Assembly: GCA_016213435.1 (NCBI GenBank)
Contig: JACRAL010000004.1
Location: forward strand, 1,286 to 65,285
DNA from: Bacteroidota bacterium
Lineage (GTDB): Bacteria; Bacteroidota; Bacteroidia; Palsa-948
Direction of reading: 5' to 3'
Length of the DNA stretch: 64,000 bases
The notes below the pieces were generated by a model that searched no databases, was not told the origin of the DNA, and saw nothing but the letters and a program-made list of their open reading frames with translations. Position numbers and translations under genes: made by a program. This document shows, one piece after another, positions 3,653 to 54,302 of the stretch (position 1 is the stretch's first letter; every line of letters starts with the position of its first letter).

Positions 3653-4729
3653 ATGAATTTTCTGAGGTTTTTATTATTCCCAGCTGCGCTGTTATACGGC
3701 ATAGGAATCTTTTTTCGAAACCTGCTGTATCAAATCGGTATTTTACCTGCTAAAGGATTTGACACAGGAATAATTGTAATCGGAAATCTATCAGTTGGAG
3801 GCACAGGAAAATCTCCAATGACAGAATATCTTATCCGTTTGTTAAAAGAAAAATTTCCTCTCGCTACGTTGAGCCGCGGATACAAGCGTCATACAACAGG
3901 ATTTCTTTTAGCAGAAAAAGATTCCACATCGTTCCAGATCGGGGATGAACCTCTTCAGTTCAAGAAAAAATTCCCGGATATAATTGTTTCAGTGGATGAA
4001 AATCGAAAGCAGGGAATAAAAAAACTTCTTTTGCAATTTCCTCAACTTAAAATAATTTTGCTGGACGATGCATTCCAGCACCGCAGAGTAAAACCCGGAC
4101 TTTCCATTTTGCTTACCGATTACAGTAAAATATTTTACGATGATTTTCTTCTGCCGGTTGGCTCATTGAGAGAATGGAGCGCGGGGAAAGGAAGAGCAGA
4201 CATCATCATTGTTACAAAATGCCCTGTCAATTTATCTCCGGTAGAAAAAAGGATCATCCTGAAAAATATTTCTCCGGAACCACATCAACATGTTTTTTTC
4301 TCGCATATAAAATACGGAGAACCGATTACTTTATTCCCCTCTCCCTCGGGAGAGGGGTTAGGGATGAGGTCGACTGTTGTGCTGCTCACCGGAATCTCCA
4401 ATCCAAAGCCATTAGAGGATTATCTCAAAGACAAAGTCAGCAATATCATTCCAATGCATTATCCCGATCACCACGAATACACAATTGTTGAAGCAAACAA
4501 AGCAGTTGAAACATTTAACAATATTGCTTCTTCAAATAAAGTAATCATCACTACGGAAAAAGACGCCATGCGTTTAGATAAACCGGGGCTTGTAGAAGTG
4601 CTTCATACCCTTCCTATATATTACATTCCGATCGAAGTTTCTTTTGATGAAAAAGAAAAAACAGAATTTAATCAACTTATAACCGATTATGCCTTTAGAA
4701 CAAATCAAAAGCACAGCGGAGTTCATTAA
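3653..4729 (+). CDS. lpxK: Tetraacyldisaccharide 4'-kinase
   Basis: IGNLSVGGTGKSP, LSRGY, GDEP, LDDAFQH, YPDHH and TTEKD motifs. Confidence 0.96.
   Translation: MNFLRFLLFPAALLYGIGIFFRNLLYQIGILPAKGFDTGIIVIGNLSVGGTGKSPMTEYLIRLLKEKFPLATLSRGYKRHTTGFLLAEKDSTSFQIGDEPLQFKKKFPDIIVSVDENRKQGIKKLLLQFPQLKIILLDDAFQHRRVKPGLSILLTDYSKIFYDDFLLPVGSLREWSAGKGRADIIIVTKCPVNLSPVEKRIILKNISPEPHQHVFFSHIKYGEPITLFPSPSGEGLGMRSTVVLLTGISNPKPLEDYLKDKVSNIIPMHYPDHHEYTIVEANKAVETFNNIASSNKVIITTEKDAMRLDKPGLVEVLHTLPIYYIPIEVSFDEKEKTEFNQLITDYAFRTNQKHSGVH
4335..4369 (+). repeat. G/C hairpin repeat (family A), in frame in lpxK
   Basis: TCCCCTCTCCCTCGGGAGAGGGGTTAGGGATGAGG, translated as PSPSGEGLGMR. Confidence 0.9.
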
Positions 4730-5501
4730 GAAACAAGTTTCTATTTCACCCGAAATCGGAATTATTCTTGGAACAGGACTTGGAGGTTTGGTGAAAGAAA
4801 TAGAGGTGCTTCATACAATTCCATATGAAAAAATTCCGAACATGCCTCTTTCCACAGTAGAAGGACATTCCGGAAAACTGATCTTTGGAATTCTTGGCGG
4901 AAAAAAAGTAGTGGCAATGCAGGGGCGCTTTCATTATTACGAAGGGTATGAAATGCAGCAAGTTATTTTTCCGGTGCGTGTGATGAAATACCTCGGCATC
5001 AAAAAACTTTTTCTCTCTAATGCGAGCGGTGGCGTAAATCCGGATTTTGAAGTCGGAGACTTAATGATCATCACCGATCACATCAACTTAATGCCCAATC
5101 CCCTCATCGGAAAAAATGAACAGGAACTGGGAGAGCGCTTCCCCGACATGAGCGAAGCATACGACAAGGCAATTATAGAAAAAGCAAAACAAATTGCGAA
5201 ACAGCACAACATTAAAATACAGCAGGGAGTGTATGTTGCCTTAACCGGACCTACTCTCGAAACCCCTGCCGAATACAAATACATGCGGATCATTGGAGGG
5301 GACACCGTTGGCATGAGCACTGCGCCTGAAGTAATTGCCGGTCATCATATGGGCATTCCATGCTTTGCCATGAGCATAATCACCGATGTAGGCGTAGAAG
5401 GACGGATTATAAAAGTTTCCCTCGCAGATATTCTGCGTGCTGCTGAAAAAGCCGAGCCGAAGATGACTTTGATAATGAAGGAACTGATAAAGAGTTTGTG
5501 A
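4689..5501 (+). CDS. punA: Purine-nucleoside phosphorylase (trimeric type)
   Basis: IILGTGLG, STVEGHSG, QGRFHYYEG, GPTLETPAE and VGMST motifs. Overlaps the lpxK 3' end. Confidence 0.93.
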   Translation: MPLEQIKSTAEFIKKQVSISPEIGIILGTGLGGLVKEIEVLHTIPYEKIPNMPLSTVEGHSGKLIFGILGGKKVVAMQGRFHYYEGYEMQQVIFPVRVMKYLGIKKLFLSNASGGVNPDFEVGDLMIITDHINLMPNPLIGKNEQELGERFPDMSEAYDKAIIEKAKQIAKQHNIKIQQGVYVALTGPTLETPAEYKYMRIIGGDTVGMSTAPEVIAGHHMGIPCFAMSIITDVGVEGRIIKVSLADILRAAEKAEPKMTLIMKELIKSL

Positions 5502-5600
5502 TTTACTTTAAAAAAAATCAGAAAGTTTTTTTCGTTCGAAATGTTGAAAATGGTTACTTTTCGAAAGAGAGAAAGAAGATTTCATCACCGATTATTTTTG

Positions 5601-5608
5601 TAGGTTTG
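5601..5608 (+). promoter_or_regulatory. Bacteroidota sigma-70 -7 box (TAnnTTTG)
   Basis: TAGGTTTG, 26 nt upstream of the ATG at 5635. Confidence 0.5.
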
Positions 5609-5634
5609 CTTCACATTTCTTATGTATAAAAAAT

Positions 5635-6309: not shown

Positions 6310-6367
6310 ATTCATGAATTATTTTTATTACTTATTTTTTGTGAACACAAAGATAGAACACCGCACT

Positions 6368-6520: not shown

Positions 6521-9500
6521 ATGACAATGAAAAGATTTTTACTTTTTTATTTATTGCCCTTTGTTTACGATCTATTGCCTGTATCTTCTTTTTCACAACG
6601 CAATAATTTCCAAACTTATTCCATAGAACAGGGCCTTCCGCAGACAACTATCTATTGTATTATTCAGGATAACCGCGGGTATCTCTGGCTCGGAACAGAT
6701 GGCGGAGGGCTTTGCCGTTTTGACGGAATCCATTTCAAAACATTTAGTAAAAAAGAAGGTTTTAAGGGAGATAATATTCGCTCCCTGTTACAAGATAGTA
6801 AAGGGAGGATTTGGGCTGGAACCAAAGGCGAAGGCATCATAATTTATGACGGGTTGAAATTTACAACGATCGCAAAAAATAATGGTCTTGCTGGAACTGC
6901 CGTGCTTTGCATGACAGAAGATAAAAATGGAAACATTTGGGCAGGAACAGATGACGGAGGACTAAACAAAATAACTCCTTTGTCCTACTCTGGAGGGGAT
7001 GCAGGGAGAGGGCTTGATTCATTCAAGATTCAAGTAGTGGACGAGCACAAAGGCCTCAGCAGCAATTCTATTTTCGATATTCATATAGATAAAGAGAACC
7101 GCATTTGGCTCGCCACGTTTGGCGGAGTAAATGTTATCACTCCCCTATCTTCAGAGAATAAAACAGATTCCTTACAAATTGATCTGTTAAGAAACGGCCG
7201 AGAAATTCCCAGCGACCAGATAATTTCCCTTGCAGAAAAAAGCGATGGAACATTATGGTTTGGCACATATGATCAGGGTGTGTTTTCCATTGCTCCAAAA
7301 AACAAAGATGCAAGTCCAAACTTTAAGCTGGATATTCTTTCACGAAAAGTTTCCGTCTTCAACTCTTCCAATGGATTCAATGCAAAAGCCATCTGGAAAA
7401 TTTTCAGTACCAGCAGAAACGAATTGTGGTTTGCTTCGGTGGAAGATGGGATCATTCGTTCGTTGCCGGGATTGACGCAAAACAAATTCGAGAAGTATAC
7501 CGACAAAGAGGGATTACCATGCACCCAAATGCTCTGCGTGTTTGAAGACAAGGACAAAAATATCTGGATCGGAACAAACGGAGGCGGACTCTGCAAATTC
7601 ATGGGAGATATTTTTTCTCACTACTCGGAAAAAGACGGATTGCCAAGTAATAATGTGCAGAGAATAGACATGGACTCCCTCGGAAGATTGTGGTTCGGCA
7701 CAAGCGGAGGAGGATTGGTGCAAATGGATACGAAAACAGGCATCCCCGTTTGTAAAAATTATACCACCAAAGACGGGCTTCCCGGCAATAATATTCTTTC
7801 TGTTTCAACCGGGAGAGGTTCGCGTAATCCAAACATTTGGGCAGCAGTTTCAGGAGCCGGACTTGCAAAATACGATGGAAGAAAGTTTTTCTCCTATTCC
7901 GAAACTGAGGGCTTGCTTGATAATAATGTATACAGTATTTATGTAGATAAAAACGGAATAGTATGGGTCGGGAGCAAACAAGGGATCAGCCGCTATGACG
8001 GAAAAAAATTCGTAACGCTTACGATGGAAGATATGAAGATCAGCGATAAAGACGTAAATGCTATTATACAGGATAAGCGCGGAAGTCTGTGGTTCGGAAC
8101 AAGAGGTGGATTAGCGAGATACGCAGGAGATGGTTCCATCACCACTTTTGACGAAGTGGAAGGACTGGATCGTAAAGAGATCATTTGCCTCGCAGAAGAC
8201 CCTTTCGGAAATATCTGGATAGGAACAACGAATGGAGGAGTTTACCGCTTTGATGTTTTCACGGATAATAAAAAGAAGATCAGTTTGATTGCGAACGATA
8301 GTTTGCTGAGTTCGAATTCTGTGCGCGCTATTATTTTTCTGGATGAAAAAACAACAGGCAATACGGGAAAACAAATGGTAGTGGGCACCGACAAAGGAAT
8401 TGATAAAATAACTTTTGATGATAAAGGAAAAATCCTCAAGATCAGGAATTACAATGCCACAGACGGATTCATCGGAGTGGAATGTAACGATAATGCGATG
8501 TATAGAGATATTAATGGAAATATTTGGATAGGAACGGTGAAAGGACTCACACGCTTTAATCCTGCAATGGAAATAAACAATCTGAATTCTCCCGAGGTTC
8601 ACATCACCAACATAAAACTTTTTTTTAAGGACGTGGACTGGAAAACAAAGGGAGTGGATTCTATTCAGCCCTGGTTCAATCTTCCCTATTCCTTGCAGCT
8701 TTCTTATCTTGACAATCGTATCACGTTTGATTATGCTGCTATCTCGCTCTGCAATCCTCAAAAAATAAAATATCGCTACATGTTGGAAGGAGTGGAAGAA
8801 GAGTGGTCGCCTCCTACTTCGCAAACAGAACGGGATTATCCAGGACTTTCTCCCGGCACCTATACTTTTAAAGTAATCAGCGCTGGAGCAAACGAAGTTT
8901 GGAATACCGAGCCGGCTGTTTTTAAATTCACCATCAATCCTCCATGGTATAGAACCACTTATGCCTATGTCACTTATCTGATCTTGCTTGTAGGCGGAAC
9001 TTATTCGTTTGTGAAATACCGAGAACGTGCTCTTCTTCTGGAGAAAAAAATCCTTGAGGATAAAGTGGAAGAACGCACTGCTGAAGTAGTAAAACAAAAA
9101 GAAGAACTGGTGCATCAGAACGAGATCATCGAAGAAAAAAATAAAGACATCACGGACAGTATTAATTACGCGGAAAAAATCCAGCGTGCTATTCTTCCCG
9201 ATCCCGAAAAAATAAAAAAGGCCTTGCCCCAATCGTTCATTCTTTTCCAACCGAGAGATATTGTGAGTGGAGATTTTTTCTGGTACAACGAAGTTAAACT
9301 CCCCTCTCCCGTGACAACCGAGCGAGATGTGAAGGTTGGCAGCGCAGCTCGGGGGGCAGGAGGTGAGGTCATTCTGCTTGCTGCAGCCGACTGCACAGGT
9401 CACGGTGTTCCCGGAGCATTTATGAGCATGATCAGTACCTCCCTGCTGAACGAAGCCGTGAATGAAAAGAAAATTCTTCAACCCAATGAAATCCTGAATG

Positions 9501-10015
9501 AAGTAAGACGCGGTATTATCCACTCGTTAAAGCAAACGGGAGAATCGGGAGGACAAAAGGACGGAATGGATGTTGGAATAATCAGTTTACAGTTTCCTCT
9601 TTCGGGTTTACAGTCGGATAACAACCGTAAACAGGAAACCTTAAATTGCAAACTTGAATATGCAGGCGCGAATAATTCCATGTACATTATCCGAAAATCC
9701 AACAATCCTGTTCTGGAAGAAATTGATCCGGATCCTATGCCTGTTGCGATAAGCGATCGCACATTTGATTTTAAAAATAATGTTATCGAACTTCAAAAAG
9801 GAGATTCCATTTATATTTTTACCGATGGTTATGCCGACCAGTTTGGCGGACCGAAAGGAAAAAAATTTGAGTACGCGCAGTTCAAGAAATTGCTTCTTTC
9901 CATTCAAAATAAAACCATGGACGAACAAAAAGAAATTCTGGACAATACCATGGCAGAGTGGAAAGGCAGCCTTGAACAGATTGATGATATCTTGGTGATT
10001 GGGGTGAGGATATAG
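6521..10015 (+). CDS. Membrane sensor: two-component-regulator beta-propellers + Y_Y_Y + TM + coiled coil + SpoIIE/PP2C phosphatase
   Basis: Repeated D..G.(L/I)W.GT..GL blades, YRYMLEG..Y..L.PG.YTFKV, one TM helix, then DIVSGDF, ADCTGHGVPGA, DGMD, FTDGYADQFGG and QIDD. Start at 6521 or 6527. Confidence 0.92.
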   Translation: MTMKRFLLFYLLPFVYDLLPVSSFSQRNNFQTYSIEQGLPQTTIYCIIQDNRGYLWLGTDGGGLCRFDGIHFKTFSKKEGFKGDNIRSLLQDSKGRIWAGTKGEGIIIYDGLKFTTIAKNNGLAGTAVLCMTEDKNGNIWAGTDDGGLNKITPLSYSGGDAGRGLDSFKIQVVDEHKGLSSNSIFDIHIDKENRIWLATFGGVNVITPLSSENKTDSLQIDLLRNGREIPSDQIISLAEKSDGTLWFGTYDQGVFSIAPKNKDASPNFKLDILSRKVSVFNSSNGFNAKAIWKIFSTSRNELWFASVEDGIIRSLPGLTQNKFEKYTDKEGLPCTQMLCVFEDKDKNIWIGTNGGGLCKFMGDIFSHYSEKDGLPSNNVQRIDMDSLGRLWFGTSGGGLVQMDTKTGIPVCKNYTTKDGLPGNNILSVSTGRGSRNPNIWAAVSGAGLAKYDGRKFFSYSETEGLLDNNVYSIYVDKNGIVWVGSKQGISRYDGKKFVTLTMEDMKISDKDVNAIIQDKRGSLWFGTRGGLARYAGDGSITTFDEVEGLDRKEIICLAEDPFGNIWIGTTNGGVYRFDVFTDNKKKISLIANDSLLSSNSVRAIIFLDEKTTGNTGKQMVVGTDKGIDKITFDDKGKILKIRNYNATDGFIGVECNDNAMYRDINGNIWIGTVKGLTRFNPAMEINNLNSPEVHITNIKLFFKDVDWKTKGVDSIQPWFNLPYSLQLSYLDNRITFDYAAISLCNPQKIKYRYMLEGVEEEWSPPTSQTERDYPGLSPGTYTFKVISAGANEVWNTEPAVFKFTINPPWYRTTYAYVTYLILLVGGTYSFVKYRERALLLEKKILEDKVEERTAEVVKQKEELVHQNEIIEEKNKDITDSINYAEKIQRAILPDPEKIKKALPQSFILFQPRDIVSGDFFWYNEVKLPSPVTTERDVKVGSAARGAGGEVILLAAADCTGHGVPGAFMSMISTSLLNEAVNEKKILQPNEILNEVRRGIIHSLKQTGESGGQKDGMDVGIISLQFPLSGLQSDNNRKQETLNCKLEYAGANNSMYIIRKSNNPVLEEIDPDPMPVAISDRTFDFKNNVIELQKGDSIYIFTDGYADQFGGPKGKKFEYAQFKKLLLSIQNKTMDEQKEILDNTMAEWKGSLEQIDDILVIGVRI
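9299..9368 (+). repeat. Family-A repeat with a nested second element, in frame in the PP2C domain
   Basis: CTCCCCTCTCCC-[..CCGAGCGAGATGTGAAGGTTGGCAGCGCAGCTCG]-GGGGGCAGGAGGTGAGG, translated as LPSPVTTERDVKVGSAARGAGGE. Confidence 0.75.
9584..9654 (+). repeat. Inverted heptamer arrays, in frame in the PP2C domain
   Basis: AGTTTAC AGTTTCC TCTTTCG GGTTTAC ... GTAAACA GGAAACC TTAAATT GCAAACT, translated as SLQFPLSGLQ..RKQETLNCKL. Confidence 0.65.
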
Positions 10016-11979: not shown

Positions 11980-14019
11980 CTAAAATAATCCCTCAAGCAA
12001 AGATTCATCCACCAAATTCGGCAAAGTTACTTTCAGATTTTTGCTTCGCTTCATTTCGCGTTCAATGGCGAAAATTGCTTCTTTGTTTCGCGCCCAGCTT
12101 CTGCGTGCGATGCCGTTATTCACATCCCAGAAAAGCATGGACTTTAATCTTCTATCACAATCTTTTGAACCGTCCAGCACCATTCCGAATCCTCCGTTGA
12201 TCACTTCGCCCCAGCCGACACCTCCACCGTTGTGAAGCGAGATCCAGGTTGCTCCGCGAAATCCATCACCGACAAAATTCTGCACTGCCATGTCAGCCGT
12301 GAATTGTGAGCCGTCATAAATATTCGAGGTTTCTCGGAAAGGAGAATCTGTTCCTGAAACATCGTGATGATCTCTTCCTAATACAACAGGAGCAGAAATT
12401 TTTTTCTCCTTGATGGCTTTGTTGAACGCTTCTGCAATTTTTGTTCTTCCTTCCGCATCAGCATATAAAATCCTCGCCTGGGAACCAACCACCAATTTAT
12501 TTTTCTGCGCTTCTTTTATCCAGTGAATATTATCGGCAAGCTGTTGTTTTATTTCTTTCGGAGCTTTTTTGTAAATCTTCTCTAAAACTTTTGCAGCAAT
12601 TTTATCTGTGGTTTCCAAGTCTTTGGGATTTGCAGAAGCGCATACCCATCGGAACGGACCGAAACCAAAATCAAAACACATGGGTCCCATGATGTCCTGG
12701 ACATAGCTCGGATAGCGAAACTGTGTTAGTCGGGATTTAAAATCCCGACCAGCGAAAATATCAGCCCCAGCTCTCCCAGCCTCAAGAAGAAAAGCATTTC
12801 CATAATCGAAGAAATACATTCCTCTTTCAGTAAGTTTATTGATCGCATTTACCTGACGCACTAAACTTTTCTGTACTTCGATTTTAAATTGAACGGGATC
12901 TTCCGTCATCATCTTTTTCGCACTCTCAAAAGAAATTCCTGCGGGATAATATCCTCCGGAATAAGGATTATGAAGTGAAGTTTGGTCGGAACCTAATTCC
13001 ACTTTTATATTTTTCTCCGCAAATTTTTCCCAGAGATCAACAATATTTCCCTGGTAGGCAATTGATACTGCTTCTTTTTTATTTCGTGCAATCTCAATTC
13101 TCTCTATGAGTTTATCAAGATCAGAAAAAACTTCATCTACCCATCCCTGCGAGTGGCGTGTGTGAGTTGCTTTTGGATTTACTTCGGCAATAACAGCAAT
13201 TGCTCCTGCTATAACAGCAGCTTTTGGCTGCGCTCCACTCATTCCGCCAAGACCGGAGGAAATAAAAACCTCACCCCCGACCCCTCTCCCCAAGGAGAGG
13301 GGAGATTTTTTTCTGTGCATTCGGAGTGCATTCAATACTGTGATGGTTGTACCATGCACAATTCCCTGCGGACCGATGTACATGAAAGAACCGGCAGTCA
13401 TTTGTCCATATTGAGTAACTCCCAGTGCGTTAAATTTTTCCCAGTCATCCGGCTTTGAATAATTCGGAATCATCATTCCGTTGGTAACAACAACGCGAGG
13501 CGCATCTTTGTGCGATGGAAACAATCCCATCGGATGGCCGGAATACATAGCGAGCGTTTGCTCATCGCTCATCGTGGCAAGGTATTTCATCGTGAGCAGA
13601 TACTGCGCCCAGTTCTGAAATACTGCACCATTTCCTCCATACGTAATGAGTTCATGTGGATGCTGCGCCACTGCATAATCCAGGTTATTGGACAGCATGT
13701 GCATGATGGCTCCCGCTTGTTTTGATCTGAACGGATACTCGTTGATCGGACGTGCATAAATTTTATAATCCGGACGAAAACGGTACATGTAAATTCTTCC
13801 GTACGTTTTTAATTCATCAGCAAATTCCTTTGCGAGAATCGAATGGAATTTTTTCGGAAAATATCTGAGCGCATTTTTTATCGCTAGTTTTTTTTCTTCG
13901 GCAGATAAAATATCCTTTCGCTTTGGCGCATGATTCAGCGAAGCGTCAAATGGCTTTGGTGCCGGAAGTTTATCCGGGATTCCCTGCAGGATCAGTTTTT
14001 GAAATTCTTTAGTGGTCAT
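11980..14019 (-). CDS. hutU: Urocanate hydratase (long, eukaryote-like form found in Bacteroidota)
   Basis: YGQMTAGS..YIGPQGIVHGT, GLGGMSGAQ, SDQTSLHNP, GRDHHDVSGTDSP and HNGGGVGWG motifs. Confidence 0.97.
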   Translation of the reverse strand: MTTKEFQKLILQGIPDKLPAPKPFDASLNHAPKRKDILSAEEKKLAIKNALRYFPKKFHSILAKEFADELKTYGRIYMYRFRPDYKIYARPINEYPFRSKQAGAIMHMLSNNLDYAVAQHPHELITYGGNGAVFQNWAQYLLTMKYLATMSDEQTLAMYSGHPMGLFPSHKDAPRVVVTNGMMIPNYSKPDDWEKFNALGVTQYGQMTAGSFMYIGPQGIVHGTTITVLNALRMHRKKSPLSLGRGVGGEVFISSGLGGMSGAQPKAAVIAGAIAVIAEVNPKATHTRHSQGWVDEVFSDLDKLIERIEIARNKKEAVSIAYQGNIVDLWEKFAEKNIKVELGSDQTSLHNPYSGGYYPAGISFESAKKMMTEDPVQFKIEVQKSLVRQVNAINKLTERGMYFFDYGNAFLLEAGRAGADIFAGRDFKSRLTQFRYPSYVQDIMGPMCFDFGFGPFRWVCASANPKDLETTDKIAAKVLEKIYKKAPKEIKQQLADNIHWIKEAQKNKLVVGSQARILYADAEGRTKIAEAFNKAIKEKKISAPVVLGRDHHDVSGTDSPFRETSNIYDGSQFTADMAVQNFVGDGFRGATWISLHNGGGVGWGEVINGGFGMVLDGSKDCDRRLKSMLFWDVNNGIARRSWARNKEAIFAIEREMKRSKNLKVTLPNLVDESLLEGLF
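12729..12749. repeat. Palindrome with perfect 10-bp arms, in frame in hutU
   Basis: GTCGGGATTT-A-AAATCCCGAC, translated as GRDFKSRL. Confidence 0.75.
13269..13304 (-). repeat. Family-A repeat, in frame in hutU
   Basis: CCTCACCCCCGACCCCTCTCCCCAAGGAGAGGGGAG, translated as SPLSLGRGVGGEV. Confidence 0.9.
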
Positions 14020-15721: not shown

Positions 15722-16789
15722 ATGAAAATTCCGCTACAGAAAATTTCAGATCCTGCAATTTCATCCTCAGGAGTAAATTTATTTGTTCTCAGATTGGATT
15801 TGACTCACCCACACATCAGCGGAAATAAATGGTACAAACTGAAATATAATCTTGAAGAAATAAAAAAGCAAAAGATAAAAACCGTTCTCACGTTTGGCGG
15901 TGCCTATTCCAATCACATTGCAGCAACGGCTGCGGCAGGAAAAAAATTCAAGTTTAAAACGATAGGAATAATTAGAGGGAATGAGTTAACCTCAGCACTG
16001 ATCCCTCTCCGACCTCGCCCCCAGCCCCTCTCCCAAAGGAGAGGGGAGAAACAGCCGGTAAACCACACTTTGCAATTTGCAAAAGAATGCGGAATGAAAT
16101 TGCATTTTGTTTCGCGTGCAGAATACAGAAAGAAACATACTCCTGAATTCCTCAGCACATTAACTCAGCAGTTTGGCAAAGTCTTTATTATTCCCGAAGG
16201 CGGCTCGAACGAGTTTGGCGTGAAAGGATGCACAGAAATTGTGAATGAAATAAATTCAAGCCCCTCTCTTATCTCCCCAAAGGGGAGAAGATTGAGCATG
16301 CAACCTGAGCTGCGCTCGCAACCTTCGGCTGTCCTTCGGGAAGGAAGGGATGGGCTCCCCTTTGATTTTATCTGCAGTGCCTGCGGAACCGGTGCAACGC
16401 TTGCAGGAATCATTCTTTCGCTCAAAAAAAATCAGCAGGCAATCGGATTTTCGGTTCTTCATGCTTCAGGTTATATAGAATCAGAGGTGAAGAAGTGGCT
16501 TGCTCGCTTTAAGAGTAATTCGTTTTCAAACTTTCACATTAATGAAGATTATGATTTCGGAAAATATGCAAAGCATACGCCTGAACTTTTAGAATTTATA
16601 AATTGTTTTGAAAAGCAAAACAACATTCCACTCGATCAGGTTTACACAGGCAAAATGATGTTCGGAATTTATGATCTCATAAAGAAAAATTATTTCCCAA
16701 AGGGAAGCACCGTCATAGCGGTTCATACTGGCGGTTTGCAAGGGAAACTAAACCCCTCTCCGGCTCTCCCATCCAGGGAGAGAGATTAA
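15722..16789 (+). CDS. ACC deaminase/D-cysteine desulfhydrase family PLP enzyme
   Basis: SGNKWYKLKYN, TFGGAYSNH, IPEGG, CGTGATLAG, LDQVYTGK and HTGGLQG motifs. Carries three in-frame repeat insertions. Confidence 0.92.
   Translation: MKIPLQKISDPAISSSGVNLFVLRLDLTHPHISGNKWYKLKYNLEEIKKQKIKTVLTFGGAYSNHIAATAAAGKKFKFKTIGIIRGNELTSALIPLRPRPQPLSQRRGEKQPVNHTLQFAKECGMKLHFVSRAEYRKKHTPEFLSTLTQQFGKVFIIPEGGSNEFGVKGCTEIVNEINSSPSLISPKGRRLSMQPELRSQPSAVLREGRDGLPFDFICSACGTGATLAGIILSLKKNQQAIGFSVLHASGYIESEVKKWLARFKSNSFSNFHINEDYDFGKYAKHTPELLEFINCFEKQNNIPLDQVYTGKMMFGIYDLIKKNYFPKGSTVIAVHTGGLQGKLNPSPALPSRERD
15989..16048 (-). repeat. Family-A repeat (partial plus full copy), in frame
   Basis: ACCTCAGCACTGATCCCTCTCC then G-ACCTCGCCCCCAGCCCCTCTCCCAAAGGAGAGGGGAG, translated as TSALIPLRPRPQPLSQRRGE. 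Confidence 0.85.
16258..16356. repeat. Family-A-related inverted doublet with a nested element, in frame
   Basis: AAGCCCCTCTCTTATCTCCCCAAAGGGGAGA...CCTTCGGGAAGGAAGGGATGGGCT, translated as SPSLISPKGRR..VLREGRDG. Confidence 0.8.
16752..16784 (-). repeat. Family-A-related repeat forming the protein C-terminus
   Basis: ACCCCTCTCCGGCTCTCCCATCCAGGGAGAGAG, translated as NPSPALPSRERD*. Confidence 0.75.
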
Positions 16790-22940: not shown

Positions 22941-23030
22941 TTCGTCATTGCGAGGGAGTTAATGACCGAAGCAATCCTATAATTCGGAGTCATAATTGAG
23001 AGATTGCTTCGCTTTGCTCGCAATGACGAA
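22941..23030. repeat. Family-B palindromic doublet, copy 2
   Basis: TTCGTCATTGCGAG...GAAGCAATC..GATTGCTTCG..CTCGCAATGACGAA, with a perfect 14-bp terminal inverted repeat. Confidence 0.93.
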
Positions 23031-23048
23031 GAGATAATATAACCGGAA

Positions 23049-23084
23049 TCGTCATTGCGAGGGAGTCAGCGACCAAAGCAATCT
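23049..23084 (+). repeat. Family-B left arm directly before the GIY-YIG start codon
   Basis: TCGTCATTGCGAGGGAGTCAGCGACCAAAGCAATCT, ending 5 nt before the ATG at 23090. Confidence 0.92.
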
Positions 23085-23089
23085 TATAA

Positions 23090-23389
23090 ATGAAACGGGT
23101 AGGATTCGCATATATAATGACAAATAAAAATAATACTACGCTTTATACGGGAGTAACATCGGATTTAAGAATTCGCACATATAAGCATAAGAATAATTTT
23201 TTCCCGGATTCATTCTCTGCAAGATATAATTTGCATAAACTTGTATACTACGAAGGATTTCATCATATTGAAGAGGCAATAGCAAGGGAAAAACAAATAA
23301 AAGCAGGGTCACGAAAGAAAAAGGAAGCATTGATAAATTCGATTAATCCTGAATGGAAGGATTTATATGATGAAGTTTTAGAATGGTGA
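23090..23389 (+). CDS. Stand-alone small GIY-YIG nuclease family protein
   Basis: AYIMTN...LYTGVTSDL..R...HK...FSARY...KLVYYE...AIAREKQIK..SR..K..LI...NP.W.DL. The Tyr/Arg/His/Glu catalytic residues appear intact. Confidence 0.93.
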   Translation: MKRVGFAYIMTNKNNTTLYTGVTSDLRIRTYKHKNNFFPDSFSARYNLHKLVYYEGFHHIEEAIAREKQIKAGSRKKKEALINSINPEWKDLYDEVLEW

Positions 23390-23404
23390 AGTTATTGTCG
23401 GAGA

Positions 23405-23490
23405 CGTGATTGCGAGGGAGTCTTCGACAGAAGTAATCTTTTTATGAGATTGCTTCGTCCCGATCCGAGCATCGGTTCTCGCAATGACGA
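23405..23490. repeat. Family-B palindromic doublet after GIY-YIG, with a mini-hairpin nested in its right arm
   Basis: CGTGATTGCGAGGGAGTCTTCGACAGAAGTAATCT..GAGATTGCTTCG[TCCCGATCCGAGCATCGGTT]CTCGCAATGACGA. Confidence 0.9.
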
Positions 23491-33117: not shown

Positions 33118-33171
33118 TCCGTATTTAAGGATGGTTTTAAGAATTCTTAATCCATCTGAATTTCTTAATTT
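33118..33171 (-). repeat. 54-bp direct repeat of the GT2 3' end (partner at 33549-33602)
   Basis: 53/54 identity by manual alignment. It continues to an alternative C-terminus GLLRF* at about 33103. Confidence 0.9.
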
Positions 33172-33530: not shown

Positions 33531-34244
33531 TTAGTTCATCTTCAATAATCCGTATTTCAGGATGGTTTTAAGAATTCTTAATCCATCTGAATTTCTTAAT
33601 TTCTTGCCTTCGCCTTCGTTTCTTGGGAAATATCTTACCGGTACTTCGGCTATCCAGGTTTTTCGCAGGCGTCCGCATTTGATAATCAGTTCTGCTTCAA
33701 ACCCGAAACGGGATTCTTTCAGGTTTAATTTTTCAAACAGATCTTTTCGGAATAATTTATATCCGCAAGCCATGTCTGTAAGATGCACATTAATGAAAAG
33801 AGATGTTAGCAGCGTAAATAATTTATTTGCAAAATATCTTCTGAAAGCCGTCTGTGGCCGTAACACGCCCGGTAAATACCGGGACCCATTTATAAAAGGA
33901 ACTTTCAATTCGTACATAGCGTTCAGCATCGAGGGAATATCTGCAGGCGAGAGTTCCATATCTGCATCCTGTATGAGAATAATATCACCCGCAGCTTGTT
34001 TAATGCCGGTCTTTACTGCAAATCCCTTTCCATTGTTTGAGGACTGGCGCAACAATTGTATGTTGGATTTCTCTTTACAATATTCCTGTACCAAGGAATA
34101 CGACCGATCGGTTGATTGATCGTCAACAATAATGATTTCTGTTTTTTCTATAAATGCAGGAAATTTTACCAACAGTAATTCATCAAGCAACGCGCAAATA
34201 AAAGTTTCTTCGTTATACAGAGGGATGATGATGCTTAGATACAT
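33531..34244 (-). CDS. GT2 glycosyltransferase (polyprenol-phosphate/DPM1-like)
   Basis: IIPLYNEE, DDQSTD, GKG, QDADMEL, GSRY, DMACGYK and FGFEAE motifs. Confidence 0.92.
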   Translation of the reverse strand: MYLSIIIPLYNEETFICALLDELLLVKFPAFIEKTEIIIVDDQSTDRSYSLVQEYCKEKSNIQLLRQSSNNGKGFAVKTGIKQAAGDIILIQDADMELSPADIPSMLNAMYELKVPFINGSRYLPGVLRPQTAFRRYFANKLFTLLTSLFINVHLTDMACGYKLFRKDLFEKLNLKESRFGFEAELIIKCGRLRKTWIAEVPVRYFPRNEGEGKKLRNSDGLRILKTILKYGLLKMN

Positions 34245-34325: not shown

Positions 34326-34492
34326 GAGTGTACGACACTCTTTTTCGAGTGCAGATGCTTGTATTAACTCTCCCCCTTGAAAAGGGGGAGTCCGGCAGGA
34401 GAGGGGGATTGAGTTTAACCACCCCTAACCCCTCCTTTGAAAGGAGGGGAGCTAACAGCCAAATATCCAAGCCAATTAAAATGTCGTGCACT
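34326..34492. mobile_element. MITE-like 167-bp element carrying two G/C hairpins
   Basis: Imperfect terminal inverted repeats AGTGTACGACA (34327-37) and TGTCGTGCACT (34482-92). Flanking 9-bp direct repeats AATTCTTCT at 34317-25 and 34493-501. Hairpins at 34370-34410 and 34417-34451. Confidence 0.65.
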
Positions 34493-37942: not shown

Positions 37943-38053
37943 AGGAGAAGTATTAAACAGGAAACAAACCTACAAAAATAATCGGTGGATAACTCAACCT
38001 TCTCAGATCAGTCGCCACTCCCGAGATATTCTGTTATCTTCGCGCTCCTTTTT

Positions 38054-44448: not shown

Positions 44449-45915
44449 TTATTTTCTGATCAGTTTTGCAACACTTTCTACATGCGCTGTATGCGGAAAC
44501 ATATCTACGGGTTGCACTTTTTCCACAAAGTACTGCTCGCTCATCAAAGCGATGTCCCGCGCCTGCGTGGCAGGATTGCAACTCACATAAATTATTTTTT
44601 CAGGAGATATCTCGAGTATTTTTTTCACCACATCTTCGTGCATGCCTGCGCGCGGAGGATCTGTGATAATTACATCCGGCTTGCCGTGTGCAGAAATAAA
44701 CTCGTTATTCAGAACATCCTTAATATCTCCGGCAAAAAATTCTGTGTTGGAAATATTATTTATCTCTGAATTTATTTTTGCATCCTCAATAGCTGCGTTG
44801 ATGTATTCAATACCGATCACTTTTTTAGCTTTCCCTGCTACGAAATTTGCAATAGTGCCCGTTCCCGTGTACAGATCATAAACAACTTCATTTCCCTTCA
44901 ATCCCGCAAAATCACGGGTTACCTTATATAACTCAAGCGCCTGAGCTGAATTGGTCTGAAAAAAAGATTTTGGACTGATGCGAAATTTTAGTTCTTCCAT
45001 TTCTTCATGTATGCAGTCTTCTCCGCTAAACGGTTTTACTTCCTGATCAAAGATGCTGTCGTTCTTTTTCGAATTAATAAGGTATTGCAAAGAAGTTATC
45101 TGTGTAAATTTTCCTGAAAGATGTTTTAGTAATTTTTCTCTTTCAGATTTATCTTCGTAAAAAAACACCATCACCACCATCCATTCACCGGTGGAGGTAC
45201 TACGAATAATCAGGTTGCGGAGAAATCCATTTTGTTTCCGGATGTCAAAAAAAGTCAGATTGTTTTCGATGGCATATTTTCTTACTTCAAGACGAATGCT
45301 GTTGGAAGGCTCTTCCTGCAAATGACATTCTGCAATATCAAGCACCTTGTCAAAAAGCTTTGGAATGTGAAATCCGAGAGCATAAGCAGCGCTGCCCAGA
45401 TTTTCCCCGATGTTGAGCGTTTGAAAATCTTCTTTCGTCAGCCACTTTTTATTTGAAAATGTAAATTCCAGTTTATTGCGGTAGTGAAAAATAGTTTTTG
45501 ATGGAATGATAGGGAGGAACTGGCTCCCCTCTCCTGTGGGAGAGGGGTTGGGGGTGAGGCGACCAATTCTTGTTAATGCATCCACCACATATTTCTGCTT
45601 GAAAAATAATTGTGCATCGTATTTCATGTTCTGCCATTTGCATCCTCCGCAAATTCCAAAATGCCGGCAGACCGGTTCGGTTCTTTTTTCAGAAAGCTTT
45701 TGGTATTGAATTACTTTCCCTTCCCGATAATTTCTTTTCTTTTGTGTGATCTGAATAGTCACCACATCGCCCGGAATTGCAAGATCGATAAAACATACAA
45801 TACTATTTTTCCCAGAAGATGCATCCGCACCCTGGTGAGGAATACGACCAATGCCTTTTCCTTCCGTGCTTATGTCGGTGATCTCAATGTTTTCAAATGT
45901 CTGAATCGCTTTCAT
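44449..45915 (-). CDS. rlmD: 23S rRNA m5U1939 methyltransferase
   Basis: TRAM domain, C.HFG.CGGC, YRNK, SFFQTN, DLYTGTG, DPPRAG, YVSCNP and DMFPHT.HVE motifs. Confidence 0.95.
   Translation of the reverse strand: MKAIQTFENIEITDISTEGKGIGRIPHQGADASSGKNSIVCFIDLAIPGDVVTIQITQKKRNYREGKVIQYQKLSEKRTEPVCRHFGICGGCKWQNMKYDAQLFFKQKYVVDALTRIGRLTPNPSPTGEGSQFLPIIPSKTIFHYRNKLEFTFSNKKWLTKEDFQTLNIGENLGSAAYALGFHIPKLFDKVLDIAECHLQEEPSNSIRLEVRKYAIENNLTFFDIRKQNGFLRNLIIRSTSTGEWMVVMVFFYEDKSEREKLLKHLSGKFTQITSLQYLINSKKNDSIFDQEVKPFSGEDCIHEEMEELKFRISPKSFFQTNSAQALELYKVTRDFAGLKGNEVVYDLYTGTGTIANFVAGKAKKVIGIEYINAAIEDAKINSEINNISNTEFFAGDIKDVLNNEFISAHGKPDVIITDPPRAGMHEDVVKKILEISPEKIIYVSCNPATQARDIALMSEQYFVEKVQPVDMFPHTAHVESVAKLIRK
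45524..45559 (+). repeat. Family-A repeat, in frame (antisense orientation) in rlmD
   Basis: CTCCCCTCTCCTGTGGGAGAGGGGTTGGGGGTGAGG, translated as LTPNPSPTGEGS. Confidence 0.92.
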
Positions 45916-49349: not shown

Positions 49350-49357
49350 GAAAAAAT

Positions 49358-50410: not shown

Positions 50411-51253
50411 CTACTTTTTCTCTTCCAGTGCAAGAGGATGAATAAGCCCTGCATATTCGGTAAGATCCATTTTGATAGAACCGACAAGCACTTTTGCTTC
50501 GGCACGGATGGGAATCCGGTTTCTGTCATCAGAGATCCATGCGTTCATGTCTTCTTCTTTTTTGAAAACTCTTCCCTTCTGAACCACCGGATGGAATCTT
50601 ATGCAGCGAATTTTTCCTATGTCAGAATTGATCGTTTCTTTCCCCATAAATTTTATTTTCAGTGACCATGCCGTGTCGTCCACAAAACAAGGGAACTCAA
50701 AAATATCTCCTTCTTTTGCATTGGAGAAATCAATTGTGCGTGCATAGTAAAAAGCAGAAGTCATATCCTGAACATTATCGGGCACATCGAATTTTTTTCC
50801 ATTCATATCCATCGTGTTCTTGTAGTGATTGAATATCTGGTTCTGTTCTATCTTATAACCTCCTTCGCTCACGCGCCTGATGAAAAGCCATGGGATTATT
50901 GCCTCTTCGTCAATGTAGGATTCATACCTGTCACGCACTTTGAAAAACCAGTCGAAGGAACTATTTGTATTTCCTATCCCAACAACGTGCAGGGTATTTC
51001 TTCCTCCGATCTGCCTGTTCTCATCTATCACACTCATGGTTACTTCACCTGCATTGATGAAACCGTAATGCATGCGGTAGGTAAGTTTTTCTCCGCGCCT
51101 GAAAGCTTCGTTTTTTTGTGTGCGCAAGGGACCATCTTGCCTCAGCCCCGACTCATTTCCAAAGGATGAGGGTGATTTACTTTCCTGAAAAACAAAAGCA
51201 GTAATAATGGTAAAAATGACAGAAGAAAAAAATATGATTATAAAATTTTTCAT
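50411..51253 (-). CDS. DUF3108-like secreted protein
   Basis: GE.L.Y..HYG, FKVRDRYES, QD..SAFY and W..DD.N.IP motifs. ATG at 51253 gives a signal peptide. Confidence 0.8.
   Translation of the reverse strand: MKNFIIIFFSSVIFTIITAFVFQESKSPSSFGNESGLRQDGPLRTQKNEAFRRGEKLTYRMHYGFINAGEVTMSVIDENRQIGGRNTLHVVGIGNTNSSFDWFFKVRDRYESYIDEEAIIPWLFIRRVSEGGYKIEQNQIFNHYKNTMDMNGKKFDVPDNVQDMTSAFYYARTIDFSNAKEGDIFEFPCFVDDTAWSLKIKFMGKETINSDIGKIRCIRFHPVVQKGRVFKKEEDMNAWISDDRNRIPIRAEAKVLVGSIKMDLTEYAGLIHPLALEEKK
51140..51176 (-). repeat. Degenerate family-A repeat, in frame
   Basis: CCTCAGCCCCGACTCATTTCCAAAGGATGAGGGTGAT, translated as SPSSFGNESGLR. Another degenerate copy is intergenic at 51285-51316. Confidence 0.55.
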
Positions 51254-51323
51254 ACCGATTATCTCTGAGCAAAGCACGTGCCAACTTTCCCTTTCCTTTT
51301 CCCGAAGAGAAAGGGGTATGTGG

Positions 51324-54302
51324 CTACATCACAATATTTACTATCCTTTTTGGTACAACGATCACTTTCTTGGGTTGTTTTCCTTCTAAGAATTTTTTTG
51401 ATTGCTCATTGGCAAGCACTTCCTTTTCAATTTCTGCCGGAGTTAAACTGAGCGACAGTTCCAAATTGAAACGCATTTTTCCGTTGAAGGAAATAGGATA
51501 AGAATAAGAATCATCCGCCATCAGTGCTTCGTTGTATTGAGGGAAAGTTGCGAAGGTGATACTTTTCTCATTTCCTAATTTATACCATAATTCTTCTGCA
51601 ATGTGTGGAGCGAATGAAGAAAGTAAAATCACGAGCGGCTCAAGAATCGCACGCTTGTTGCATTTTAATTCTGTGAGCTCGTTTGTGCAGATCATGAAAG
51701 CGCTCACCGAAGTGTTGAAGGAATAATTATCAATATCCTGTTGGATCTTTTTGATGGTCTTGTGAAGGATTTTGAGTTCGGGTTTTGTAGGTTCGTCCTC
51801 AGAAACAAAAAAAGCCCCACCTAAATCCTCCCCGTTAGAGAGGACTTTCAGTTCGTTCTCCCTCCCTTTGGGAGGGTTGGGGTGGGCTAATCTCCAGAAC
51901 TTATTCAGAAAACCAAAAACCCCGCTGATGCCGTTTGTATTCCATGGTTTGCTTTGCTCCAGCGGACCGAGGAACATTTCGTACAAACGCAAGGTGTCAG
52001 CGCCAAAATTTGTGCAGATGTCATCGGGAGTGACGACATTGTATTTTGACTTGGACATTTTTTCGACTTCTCTTTTTACGAGAAAAGGCGGTCTGGTTTT
52101 TTCTGGTGTTAATACTCCATTGTCATTATAATAACCCCCTTTAAAATAATAACCTTCTTTAAGAATAAAAACCGAATCAGAATATTCGTTACCAAACTGT
52201 GATTCTATAAATAAATCAATATTTAATTTTTCTTCATCAACAAATTCAATAGGGCTATTTCTTTCGAAAACAGAAAAGGGTTCTATTCCGGTTGGAACTT
52301 TATAAGGATATACGTCTGCACTACTTATAAATCTTTGAACGTCATTAAATGTTATTTGTCTTGGGTAATCACTGTTATTTAAACTTGGTCCCATCCAATT
52401 ATTTGACATAGAAACACCACTACTATTTATTCCTCCAATAAATATTTTTGCACTCATTCCTTGAATCATCCCCTGATTGATCAGCTTCTTTGCAGGTTCA
52501 ATTACAGGGATCAAACCGAGGTCAAATAAAAATTTTGTCCAGAAGCGCATGTAAAGCAAATGTCCGGTGGCGTGCTCGGCACCGCCAATGTAGAGGTCAA
52601 CATCTTTCCAGTAATTCAGCGCATCCTTTCCGGCAAATTCATTTTTGTTCTGCGGATCCATGTAGCGCAAATAATACCAGCTGCTTCCTGCCCAACCCGG
52701 CATCGTAGTTTTCTCGTACTCATATTTTCCCTGATGTTTCCAGTTCTTCGCGCGCGCCAAAGGCGGTTCACCGTCTTCGGTAGGTAAATATTTATCTACT
52801 TCAGGAAGCACCAGTGGAAGTTCGTTCTCTTCCATCACGTGGGGAATTCCATCCTTATAATAAACGGGAATTGGCTCGCCCCAGTAACGCTGTCTGCCGA
52901 AAATTGCATCGCGCAAACGGAATTGTGTTCTTCCAAAACCTAATCCTCTTTTTTCAATTTCCTGTATCGCACGTTTGATGGAATCTTTTACATCAAGCCC
53001 ATTTAAAAAATCTGAATTGATACATTTTCCTTCTTTCGCGTCCCACGCTTCTCTTTGAATATCCCATCCTTCGGGAGCGGAAACAACTTGTTTGATTTCC
53101 AGATCAAAATGTTTTGCAAAAGCATGGTCGCGTGAATCGTGAGCTGGCACAGCCATCACTGCGCCCGTTCCATAACCAGCTAGTACATAATCTCCAAGCC
53201 AAATTGGAATCCTATTTTTTGTAAATGGATGAATACAAAACGCTCCAGTGTCAACTCCGGTAACATTTTTGACATCCGCCATGCGATCTCTTTCAGAACG
53301 GATTTTTACTTTTTCAATATAGGCATCAACTTCATTCTTCTTTTCCGAAGAACATATTTTTGTTGCTAATGGATGCTCAGGAGCAAGGACAAGAAAGGTT
53401 GCGCCAAAGATTGTATCCGGACGTGTTGAGAAAACTGGAATATAAGATTGCTTTTCATTGTCAACATTGAAAGTAAGAGAAGCACCTTCTGATTTTCCAA
53501 TCCAGTTGCGTTGCGCTTCTTTAATTGATTCGCTCCAGTCAATATTATCGAGATTGTTTAACAATCTGTTTGCATAAGCGGTAATGCGCAAACTCCATTG
53601 CGGCATGAGTTTTCTTTCTACCGGATACCCACCGCGCTCAGAAACACCGTCTTTCACTTCTTCATTCGCCAGAACGGTTCCAAGCTGCGGACACCAGTTT
53701 ACCCAAGCTTCGCTTAAATAAGCTAAGCGATATTCCATCAGCACATCACTTTTCTCTTTCTCATTCAACTCATCCCATTTCTTTTCCAACTTTCCAACTT
53801 TGCCACTTTCTAACTTTTGAACTAAAGTATTTATTGATTCCGCTTTATCCGTTTCATGATTGTACCATGAATTAAAAAGTTTTATAAAAATCCACTGCGT
53901 CCATTTGTAATAGTTAGGATCGGAAGTGCGCACTTCCCGTTCCCAGTCGAATGAGAAACCAATTTTATCCATCTGCTCGCGGTAGCGGGCAATATTATCT
54001 TTAGTGGTTTTTTCAGGATGCTGTCCGGTTTGAATGGCGTATTGTTCTGCAGGAAGTCCAAAGGAATCATATCCCATCGGATGCAAAACGTTAAACCCTT
54101 TCAGCCTTTTGTAACGTGAAACAATATCGGAAGCAATGTATCCCAGCGGATGCCCAACGTGCAAGCCGGCACCGGAAGGATATGGAAACATATCGAGCGC
54201 GTAATATTTCGGCTTGACAGATTTATTTTCAGCACGAAAAGTTTTGTTGTCTGCCCAGTGCTTTTGCCACTTTTTTTCTATTTCTCCGAATGGATATGCC
54301 AT
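51324..54302 (-). CDS. leuS: Leucine--tRNA ligase
   Basis: MFPYPSG.GLHVGH (HIGH), TRPDT, GTGAVMAVPAHD, RQRYWG and KMSKS motifs. Confidence 0.98.
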   Translation of the reverse strand: MAYPFGEIEKKWQKHWADNKTFRAENKSVKPKYYALDMFPYPSGAGLHVGHPLGYIASDIVSRYKRLKGFNVLHPMGYDSFGLPAEQYAIQTGQHPEKTTKDNIARYREQMDKIGFSFDWEREVRTSDPNYYKWTQWIFIKLFNSWYNHETDKAESINTLVQKLESGKVGKLEKKWDELNEKEKSDVLMEYRLAYLSEAWVNWCPQLGTVLANEEVKDGVSERGGYPVERKLMPQWSLRITAYANRLLNNLDNIDWSESIKEAQRNWIGKSEGASLTFNVDNEKQSYIPVFSTRPDTIFGATFLVLAPEHPLATKICSSEKKNEVDAYIEKVKIRSERDRMADVKNVTGVDTGAFCIHPFTKNRIPIWLGDYVLAGYGTGAVMAVPAHDSRDHAFAKHFDLEIKQVVSAPEGWDIQREAWDAKEGKCINSDFLNGLDVKDSIKRAIQEIEKRGLGFGRTQFRLRDAIFGRQRYWGEPIPVYYKDGIPHVMEENELPLVLPEVDKYLPTEDGEPPLARAKNWKHQGKYEYEKTTMPGWAGSSWYYLRYMDPQNKNEFAGKDALNYWKDVDLYIGGAEHATGHLLYMRFWTKFLFDLGLIPVIEPAKKLINQGMIQGMSAKIFIGGINSSGVSMSNNWMGPSLNNSDYPRQITFNDVQRFISSADVYPYKVPTGIEPFSVFERNSPIEFVDEEKLNIDLFIESQFGNEYSDSVFILKEGYYFKGGYYNDNGVLTPEKTRPPFLVKREVEKMSKSKYNVVTPDDICTNFGADTLRLYEMFLGPLEQSKPWNTNGISGVFGFLNKFWRLAHPNPPKGRENELKVLSNGEDLGGAFFVSEDEPTKPELKILHKTIKKIQQDIDNYSFNTSVSAFMICTNELTELKCNKRAILEPLVILLSSFAPHIAEELWYKLGNEKSITFATFPQYNEALMADDSYSYPISFNGKMRFNLELSLSLTPAEIEKEVLANEQSKKFLEGKQPKKVIVVPKRIVNIVM
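51813..51888. repeat. Family-A-related inverted doublet, in frame in leuS
   Basis: AGCCCCACCTAAATCCTCCCCGTTAGAGAGGAC..CTCCCTCCCTTTGGGAGGGTTGGGGTGGGCT, translated as AHPNPPKGRENELKVLSNGEDLGGA. Confidence 0.88.

Follow-up and report, generated by a model that had tools for sequence, protein, structure and literature searches.

We analysed a stretch of 64,000 nucleotides (the window) from contig JACRAL010000004.1 of the Bacteroidota assembly GCA_016213435.1 (positions 1,286 to 65,285, forward strand), in which a short G/C-rich repeat lies inside several conserved genes and is read in frame with them. The repeat is a triplex motif (TM): a hairpin followed by a G-rich tail. The source genome (G000) is a groundwater metagenome-assembled genome (MAG) of 3.70 Mb, with 39% G + C, 216 contigs and 97% completeness. 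Genes were called from open reading frames (ORFs) and codon usage, as proxies. By Pfam, the repeat-bearing ORFs of the window were recognized as LpxK, a Reg_prop/Y_Y_Y/SpoIIE sensor, urocanase (hutU), a pyridoxal phosphate (PLP)-dependent enzyme, called a desulfhydrase in the original prediction made for this window, a RlmD-like methyltransferase, a DUF3108 protein and LeuRS. The following copies were found:

4335–4369, + strand: lpxK copy, a main-family TM in frame, residues 228–239, FPSPSGEGLGMR.
9299–9368, + strand: sensor copy, a 70-nt TM variant with a C-stem, a 35-nt inner hairpin and G-tails, read in frame within the sensor's SpoIIE domain.
13269–13304, − strand: hutU copy, a main-family TM in frame, SPLSLGRGVGGE, directly ahead of the SGLGGMSGAQ motif.
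15989–16048, − strand: PLP-dependent enzyme site 1, a tandem of a truncated TM from 15989 and a full main-family TM at 16012–16048, in frame, LIPLRPRPQPLSQRRGE.
16256–16357, + strand: PLP-dependent enzyme site 2, a composite 99-nt net insertion (33 residues) in which two TM-like units flank a 35-nt hairpin.
16754–16782, − strand: PLP-dependent enzyme site 3, a TM forming a C-terminal extension, NPSPALPSRERD and then the stop.
34370–34448, no strand: intergenic pair, a hairpin at 34370–34406 beside a TM of another subfamily at 34418–34448 (−).
45524–45559, + strand: rlmD copy, a main-family TM antisense to rlmD (gene on the − strand), read as LTPNPSPTGEG.
51139–51176, − strand: DUF3108 copy, a degenerate main-family copy in a non-conserved N-terminal linker.
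51816–51844 (−) and 51860–51886 (+): leuS copies, of other TM subfamilies, in frame, read as HPNPPKGRE...NGEDLGGA.

Site reading, a repeat search and a TM finder with stems of at least 7 together gave nine clear copies in the window, eight of them within ORFs, besides two to three degenerate ones. The G-rich arm GGAGAGGGG occurred 11 times, versus 0.11 expected (0 of 100 shuffles reached 11), and the tail GGGGGTGAGG six times with at most one mismatch, versus 1.12 expected. In PLP enzyme site 2 the finder detected a TM at 16263–16288 (−), and the 35-nt hairpin of this site is related to the inner hairpin of the sensor insert, a variant with five copies in G000. The rlmD copy gave a DNA hairpin of −10.8 kcal/mol (z −3.05). 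The DUF3108 copy adds no net insertion. A contig from another assembler crosses the lpxK site with 0 differences (same sample, so not independent).

The original prediction had placed in-frame copies of a G/C hairpin at these genes. The gene copies were recovered, but no finder used detected a repeat at 6975, 51285 or 55296, and these sites were not counted. The hairpin is real and is only part of the unit, which also has a mirror-image G-rich tail; the family had not been recognized as the published BoxC/PIT/TM intrastrand-triplex motif (PMC4666352).

The main-family unit reads ttCT-CCCCTCTCC-N4-GGAGAGGGG-N2/3-GGGGTGAGG-Y and has 36 nt, equal to 12 codons. It consists of a 9-nt C-rich arm, a loop of 3–4 nt, the complementary G-rich arm, 2–3 nt, and a 3' G-rich tail that mirrors the G-rich arm of the stem, T standing opposite A. 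G000 contained 60 perfect CCCCTCTCC-N(2-6)-GGAGAGGGG hairpins. From 51 oriented seeds a single consensus was obtained, and the profile built on them found 142 non-overlapping main-family copies (E<=1e-3). The core was 34 nt long in 87 of 132 delimited copies, and 43 copies matched a strict 32–34-nt pattern. The mirror rule was tested on asymmetric stems, since direct and mirror versions of G-rich arms otherwise overlap. A mirror tail with at most one mismatch followed 183 of 406 asymmetric perfect G-rich hairpins (150 perfect); a direct-copy control gave 65 (15 perfect) and an upstream control gave 1. Where either tail type fitted a hairpin, the mirror was the better one 155 times and the direct copy 6 times; 26 were ties. 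The tail base opposite an arm A was A (374), T (258), G (34) or C (2). TM subfamilies with differing arms kept the mirror rule, and a generic triplex finder gave 348 matches in G000 versus 0 in a Markov-shuffled genome. ViennaRNA predicts the hairpin part only.

Holder et al. 2015 (NAR 43:10126; PMC4666352), in the parts cited here, treat BoxC, PIT and TM_ECO as one motif, with a C-rich arm, a loop, a G-rich arm, a 3-nt loop and a second G-rich arm, for which a purine-motif intrastrand triplex is possible. Their count is 3610 copies over 262 proteobacterial genomes, besides numerous G/C-rich motifs of cyanobacteria, and they link TMs to local instability, with copy numbers that vary strongly between close strains (PMC4666352). 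The 23 BoxC copies of E. coli K-12 are, in their words, “always located intergenically” (PMC4666352). The likeness to our element is close: the same three-part architecture, a length of 34–37 nt, a mirror G-rich tail with T opposite A, and an E. coli sequence, CCCTCTCCCTGTGGGAGAGGGCCGGGGTGAGGGC, that is near-identical to CCCCTCTCCTGTGGGAGAGGGGTTGGGGGTGAGG of G000. Both are dispersed in both orientations, with some inverted pairs, no target-site duplication (TSD) and no transposase nearby, and in both the copy number is very uneven among close relatives. They differ in location, as E. coli copies are reported to be always intergenic whereas 75% of those in G000 are in frame within genes, and in host, here a 39% G + C Bacteroidota MAG instead of a proteobacterium or cyanobacterium. 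No mobility gene is reported for E. coli, whereas the motifs here bracket cassettes of the nuclease domain DUF559. The published TM_ECO pattern CCCTCNCCC-N3-6-GGGNGAGGG-N3-GGGNGAGGG had 0 matches in G000, because the arm register is shifted (CCCCTCTCC / GGAGAGGGG / GGGGTGAGG). By its sequence, the element can be assigned to the wider G/C-rich class II triplex-motif class of Holder et al., and not to TM_ECO sensu stricto.

Genome-wide, 107 of the 142 main-family copies were in frame deep inside coding ORFs, as judged by codon usage in both flanks. Eight lay near a 5' end, three near a 3' end and 24 elsewhere. Of 3000 random positions scored likewise, 2168 were in-frame interior, which means that genes are not depleted of the element. 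The 107 in-frame copies were read as LPSPxGEGxGVR (30), SPLSxGRGxGGE (31), LTPNPSPxGEG (30), TSPPTPLPxERG (9) and PHPQPLS (4), with three unclear. Both orientations and five frames are thus used, extending to the whole genome what had been read from the window. One DNA consensus in five frames points to conservation at the DNA level. Only one of the six frames of the unit has a stop codon, the TGA of the tail. This TGA is kept in 108 copies and the coding frame enters it in at most three, in agreement with the avoidance proposed for the window. The missing stop frame indicates that translation runs through the element, and all inserts keep the reading frame of the host gene. A replication-strand bias was weak: in MAG contigs, 132 of 235 cases had the G-rich strand on the G-skewed one (p 0.07).

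Insertion sites were compared with eight other genomes of the genus (G001–G008) and a further member of the family (G009). These relatives are different species with 65–92% protein identity, and the junctions are therefore not definable to the base. In hutU, the copy of G005 is almost base-for-base the same, the insert is absent in G001, G002 and G007, and G004, G008 and G009 have other inserts instead (in G008 another TM variant). The urocanase structure 6uek has a 6-residue gap at this site. G002 and G007 lack the rlmD copy. G003 and G005 have diverged copies with its orientation, and at the same site G004 has a TM of opposite orientation. At PLP enzyme site 1, G002 and G005 have no insert, and G004 and G007 have other TM variants. 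The insertion at site 2 is unique to G000; in all six congeners compared, one Ile codon stands in its place, and the flanks are conserved. At the C-terminus of this enzyme G005 has another TM variant and the remaining congeners end earlier. The leuS site is empty in G002 and G008 and carries a different TM in G005. The sensor site, a single codon, is empty in G002 and G007, has a solo TM in G004 and the 70-nt variant in G000, and is occupied by a complete 438-nt DUF559 cassette in G005, with an allele length of 489 nt versus 51 nt. The solo copies at this site differ in subfamily from the ends of the G005 cassette.

Contigs from two groundwater metagenomes (X1 and X2) were placed on the window at 80% likeness and yielded no same-strain evidence of presence or absence. 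Among the sequencing runs listed, the DNA is present only in the probable source run, from groundwater, and in one weak relative, and no RNA run contains it. Contigs of a relative in X2 join across the sensor region (9284–9385), and at PLP enzyme site 2 they join 16255 to 16361 with ATTCCG between.

The lpxK site is a variable loop in 17 of 17 aligned orthologues, three congeners having other repeat-like peptides there. In an AlphaFold2 (AF2) model from a 22-sequence alignment (pLDDT 87.8, pTM 0.87), residues 228–239 form a predicted coil between strands 213–221 and 241–246, with a mean pLDDT of 64 for residues 231–240 versus 86 and 92 alongside. The alignment of LpxK to the PDB covers residues 3–190 only, short of the insert. 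The expected loop placement was thus borne out, for LpxK only. The peptides, forecast to be gaps in relatives, are indeed absent in some congeners at the hutU, rlmD, leuS, sensor and desulfhydrase sites. Orthologues did not carry the same peptides with conserved residues and divergent codons, and the insertion reading therefore stands. Other parts of the forecast need correction. The inserts are not the plain additions once supposed; they overwrite variable loops, in which other species have other variants. An “active or recent” element is supported only indirectly, by the patchy copy number within the genus, from 0 to 60. Several inserts, e.g., the hutU insert of G000 and G005, are common to different species and are therefore old.

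No mobiliser lies within the window, as the original prediction had said. G000 as a whole has four PF04480 (DUF559) matches; DUF559 is a Vsr-like PD-(D/E)XK nuclease domain. Two of them share an open frame with recJ and mutS, respectively, with a C-rich-form TM upstream and a G-rich-form TM downstream, i.e., inverted. These two genes, recJ for a repair exonuclease (G000:C174:34943-35254) and mutS for mismatch repair (G000:C167:9511-9831), lie outside the window and each contains a complete in-frame Vsr-like nuclease domain. The other two DUF559 genes are free-standing, between short TM-like inverted repeats. Of the two candidate mobilisers named beforehand, the DUF559/Vsr-like nuclease is thus associated with the motif. 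The other, a Y1/RAYT transposase, was rejected: of five PF01797 matches in G000, none had the motif within 800 nt.

In the genus, open frames of 380–1300 residues contain many of the DUF559 matches. Twelve copies located by a sequence signature are embedded, in iPGM, RecJ (three genomes), a RluA-type synthase, a TPR-SpoIIE sensor, TsaD, acetyl-CoA synthetase (two), a MeaB-mutase fusion, MutS and RecG. Their PF04480 scores were 104–120 bits against a cut-off of 20.6, and the embedded domain splits Pfam domains of the host protein. The Pfam hits of the 12 host proteins included no intein (Hint) or other splicing domain; a Rfam intron search was not made. The architecture is fixed, with the C-form ~155 nt upstream and the G-form ~170–180 nt downstream of the nuclease motif; the cassettes are ~440–490 nt long. 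A TM was present within 330 nt of 11 of the 12 embedded domains, versus a background of one TM per 9 kb. TM-like terminal inverted repeats (16–42 nt) occurred at 9 of 22 DUF559 loci versus 14 of 300 controls; the DUF559 sequence signature misses 8 of 30 loci, which were excluded from this count and from that of TM proximity.

Occupied and empty cassette sites were both found. The recJ site is occupied in G000, G002 and G004 and empty in G005, G006 and G007, and G008 has a short 3' remnant with a degenerate TM. The mutS site is occupied in G000 and G004 and empty elsewhere, except in G006, where the cassette has decayed to its two ends around ~100 nt of other sequence.

The association extends beyond the genus. 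In four other families (G015, G018, G020 and G050), main-family hairpins lie 38–57 nt from embedded DUF559 domains. A Prevotella MAG has a main-family TM, a 128-aa DUF559 ORF and an inverted main-family TM in succession, and another Bacteroidota MAG has a cassette in frame in leuS. In E. coli K-12 (NC_000913.3 1351204-1351760), the DUF559 gene ycjD has BoxC copy no. 9 ~170 nt downstream. At its 3' end ycjD passes into a degenerate hairpin; next come a partial duplicate of the last ~50 nt of the gene and then the BoxC copy. With the cassette embedded in recJ as query, 291 public proteins of at least 280 aa were found (E<=1e-10); the 120 of these that were listed were mostly LeuRS (Bacteroidia and the candidate phyla radiation), acetyl-CoA synthetase, RecJ, TGT and others.

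Perfect main-family hairpins numbered 60, 0, 1, 47, 56, 14, 19, 4 and 1 in the nine genomes of the genus (G000–G008) and 12–23 in four other families of the class; a reversed-pattern control gave 0 in all 61 genomes searched. Of these 61 genomes, 20 had both hairpin and DUF559, one the hairpin only, 16 DUF559 only and 24 neither (odds ratio 30, p 2e-5). Leaving out the genus gave 12/1/16/23 (odds ratio 17, p 0.0013). Because kin among the genomes are not independent data, both Fisher tests overstate the association. DUF559 was present in 10 of 10 genomes with at least five hairpins.

The setting is wider than the Bacteroidota envisaged at first. The matches listed for the exact 34-nt pattern are from Prevotella, Hymenobacter, Xanthomonas, Planctomycetota, Chloroflexota, Cyanobacteria, Methylomirabilota, Fibrobacter, a MAG of the Peribacteria and others. 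In other phyla (80 of 131 loci), only 7 of 34 low-GC matches had an ORF extending at least 60 aa to either side, so that residence in frame is not a general feature. In X1 and X2, contigs of other organisms pile up on the window at 4336–4369 and 16013–16048, with a summed depth of 400–700 versus ~15 in the flanks. This suggests that the repeat is abundant across the community and that assemblies often break at it.

Three known systems resemble the element in part. The first are the Rickettsia palindromic elements (RPEs), reportedly described by Ogata and colleagues in 2000 as “selfish DNA in protein-coding genes”. RPEs are ~100–150 bp long. We know of no triplex-type mirror tail in RPEs, of no RPE outside Rickettsia and of no nuclease linked to them. 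Like RPEs, the copies found here belong to one dispersed palindromic repeat that is read through in frame in many housekeeping genes, in loops where it is tolerated, much as the original prediction had it. The unit here has 36 nt and occurs across phyla, and it was set apart from RPEs by its length, without a sequence comparison. The element works like RPEs and is not a member of them.

The second are Vsr-fold homing endonucleases. Taylor et al. 2011, in the part cited here, describe a family with the EDxHD fold, e.g., I-Bth0305I, in recA (PMC3239194). Common to both is a small gene for a Vsr-like nuclease within conserved genes (recA in that case; recJ, mutS, leuS and others in ours), and relatives have empty sites. 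The homing enzymes are encoded in introns or inteins or are free-standing, with NUMOD DNA-binding regions, whereas the cassettes of the predicted DUF559 nuclease are translated as part of the host protein and have triplex-motif inverted-repeat ends. Steczkiewicz et al. 2012 place VSR, DUF559, DUF2726 and 3r3p (the homing endonuclease I-Bth0305I) in one clade (PMC3424549, in part). From the sections cited, Tkaczuk et al. 2007 report DUF559 fused to a SPOUT methyltransferase (PMC1829167), and in Milman et al. 2023 the “DUF559 domain-containing protein” is 14-fold enriched among predicted inversion targets, i.e., genes with flanking inverted repeats (PMC9881135). A paper on in-frame triplex motifs or on a link between BoxC and DUF559 was not found in the open-access literature.

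The third are MITEs (miniature inverted-repeat transposable elements) and the REP/RAYT system. Short structured non-coding repeats outnumber their possible protein-coding partner in all of these, and flank it inverted, as REPs flank RAYT. In contrast to MITEs, the element has no TSD (direct repeats flanking the copies equalled a shuffled-partner control) and mostly single ends instead of pairs of terminal inverted repeats. In contrast to REPs, the consensus has no GTAG/CGTC tag, and the Y1 genes of G000 are not flanked by it.

We lean slightly toward the reading that the TM-class repeats read in frame are ends or derivatives of DUF559 cassettes, that DUF559 mobilises both, and that copies survive only in tolerant loops. 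The solo repeats would be non-autonomous ends or derivatives of the cassettes. The nuclease would cut DNA at target sites or folded repeats, or close to them, and repair would then copy in a cassette or just one end, in a homing-like manner that needs no splicing and leaves no TSD. Only in-frame, stop-free insertions in tolerant loops would survive. From the bracketing and the co-occurrence we infer that the DUF559 nuclease moves the repeats. A broader claim appears to us evenly balanced: BoxC/PIT/triplex repeats may be the ends and solo derivatives of an undescribed pan-bacterial mobile element, a DUF559 cassette with triplex-forming terminal repeats that is translated straight through essential genes without intron, intein or target duplication, and that may have seeded more than 100 extra loops in some lineages, this one included.

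Several observations weigh against DUF559 as the mobiliser. G000 has no main-family cassette; its four DUF559 genes carry other subfamilies, which leaves the 142 main-family copies without a cognate nuclease in a 97%-complete assembly. A TM was detected at only 3 of 12 free-standing DUF559 genes with a relaxed finder. G007 and G008 have six to eight DUF559 genes but only one to four main hairpins, and DUF559 is present in 16 of 40 genomes without the main hairpin, where the pattern covers one subfamily only. The relatedness of the genomes inflates the co-occurrence tests, as said above. Tails on both sides were found in only 9 of 60 perfect hairpins, and a simple MITE model does not predict mostly single ends. 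At one codon, different TM subfamilies, even in opposite orientations, were found across species, as would be expected from re-use or overwriting of a site more than from one clean insertion. For E. coli, the parts of Holder et al. cited here report the TM triplex for a single strand in vitro and not in vivo, and no transposase or mobility gene near the TMs (PMC4666352).

In another account, TMs would spread by host replication or repair alone, through structure-induced polymerase stalling, template switching or gene conversion, with DUF559 a passenger that lands or is retained at the motifs. We take this as a serious rival, although an unlikely one. The tie of TMs to local instability without a mobility gene, in the cited parts of Holder et al. 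(PMC4666352), speaks for it, as do the predominance of solo ends without TSD, the lack of a main-family-flanked DUF559 in G000 and the DUF559 genes of hairpin-free genomes. Differing variants and orientations at one codon are likewise what an unstable, repeatedly rewritten spot would give. It accounts poorly for the fixed spacing of C-form and G-form around the nuclease motif in many unrelated host genes, for the recurrence of TM-ended cassettes in different phyla and for DUF559 in every genome with at least five hairpins. A near-identical 36-nt sequence in a dozen phyla, among the matches listed, would also be hard to obtain in this way.

Alternatively, the solo repeats may never have moved alone, each being the leftover end of a DUF559 cassette after a single insertion and loss of the interior. 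The two ends in mutS of G006, the recJ remnant of G008, and the sensor site, where the solo TMs of G000 and G004 match the cassette position of G005, are what this predicts. As a general account we find it improbable, as the 142 copies have sharp common boundaries (ttCT|...|Y) with no trace of nuclease coding sequence alongside, and 43 of them match the strict 32–34-nt pattern. Moreover, the solo copies at the sensor site are not of the subfamily of the G005 cassette ends, and the 99-nt insert found only in G000 has no nuclease remnant.

It is very improbable that the segments are excised before the protein functions, by intron-like removal from RNA or intein-like removal from protein. Avoidance of the stop frame and the frame kept by all inserts point to selection on translation through the element, and the 12 cassette-bearing host proteins have no intein (Hint) or splicing domain among their Pfam hits. 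We know of no self-splicing capacity of the 36-nt unit. It is hardly credible that the peptides, instead of being DNA insertions, are functional Pro/Gly-rich linkers conserved by selection on the protein: they do look like flexible Pro/Gly/Ser-rich loops, but one nucleotide consensus serves five frames on both strands, 35 of the 142 copies lie outside gene interiors, and orthologues exist without the peptides.

BoxC/PIT/TM repeats have been known since the 1990s, in hundreds of genomes, with no accepted origin, mobiliser or function. The DUF559 nuclease is a concrete, testable candidate enzyme for a long-orphan repeat family. Compared with the E. coli picture, two things are new. One is in-frame residence in essential genes on a large scale, with 107 main-family copies, in genes including lpxK, leuS, hutU and rlmD. 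The other is that repeats form the ends of a nuclease cassette read through in genes of repair and translation, e.g., recJ, mutS, tsaD and leuS. The findings suggest a route by which selfish DNA may persist in essential genes without splicing, and point to a steady supply of new protein surface loops. They also bear on annotation, as host proteins are now labelled, e.g., “leucyl-tRNA synthetase/very-short-patch-repair endonuclease”.

The window has other repeats as well. Three intergenic copies of a different 41-nt repeat, with the core CATTGCGAGG, lie at 22942–23444; the whole genome has 31 occurrences of the core, over both strands. A 54-nt direct repeat (33118–33171 and 33549–33602; 98% identical, 431 nt apart) overlaps the 3' end of the ORF at 33531–34244. 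A 44-nt inverted match with 82% identity links 5569–5612 and 37961–38004, in intergenic or gene-start regions 32 kb apart. CATCGG hexamers are in tandem at 63616–63675, within the ORF at 63143–63736. The SpoIIE module of the sensor (9062–10012) gave 30–52 matches in each of the five congeners searched, indicating a very large paralogous sensor family.

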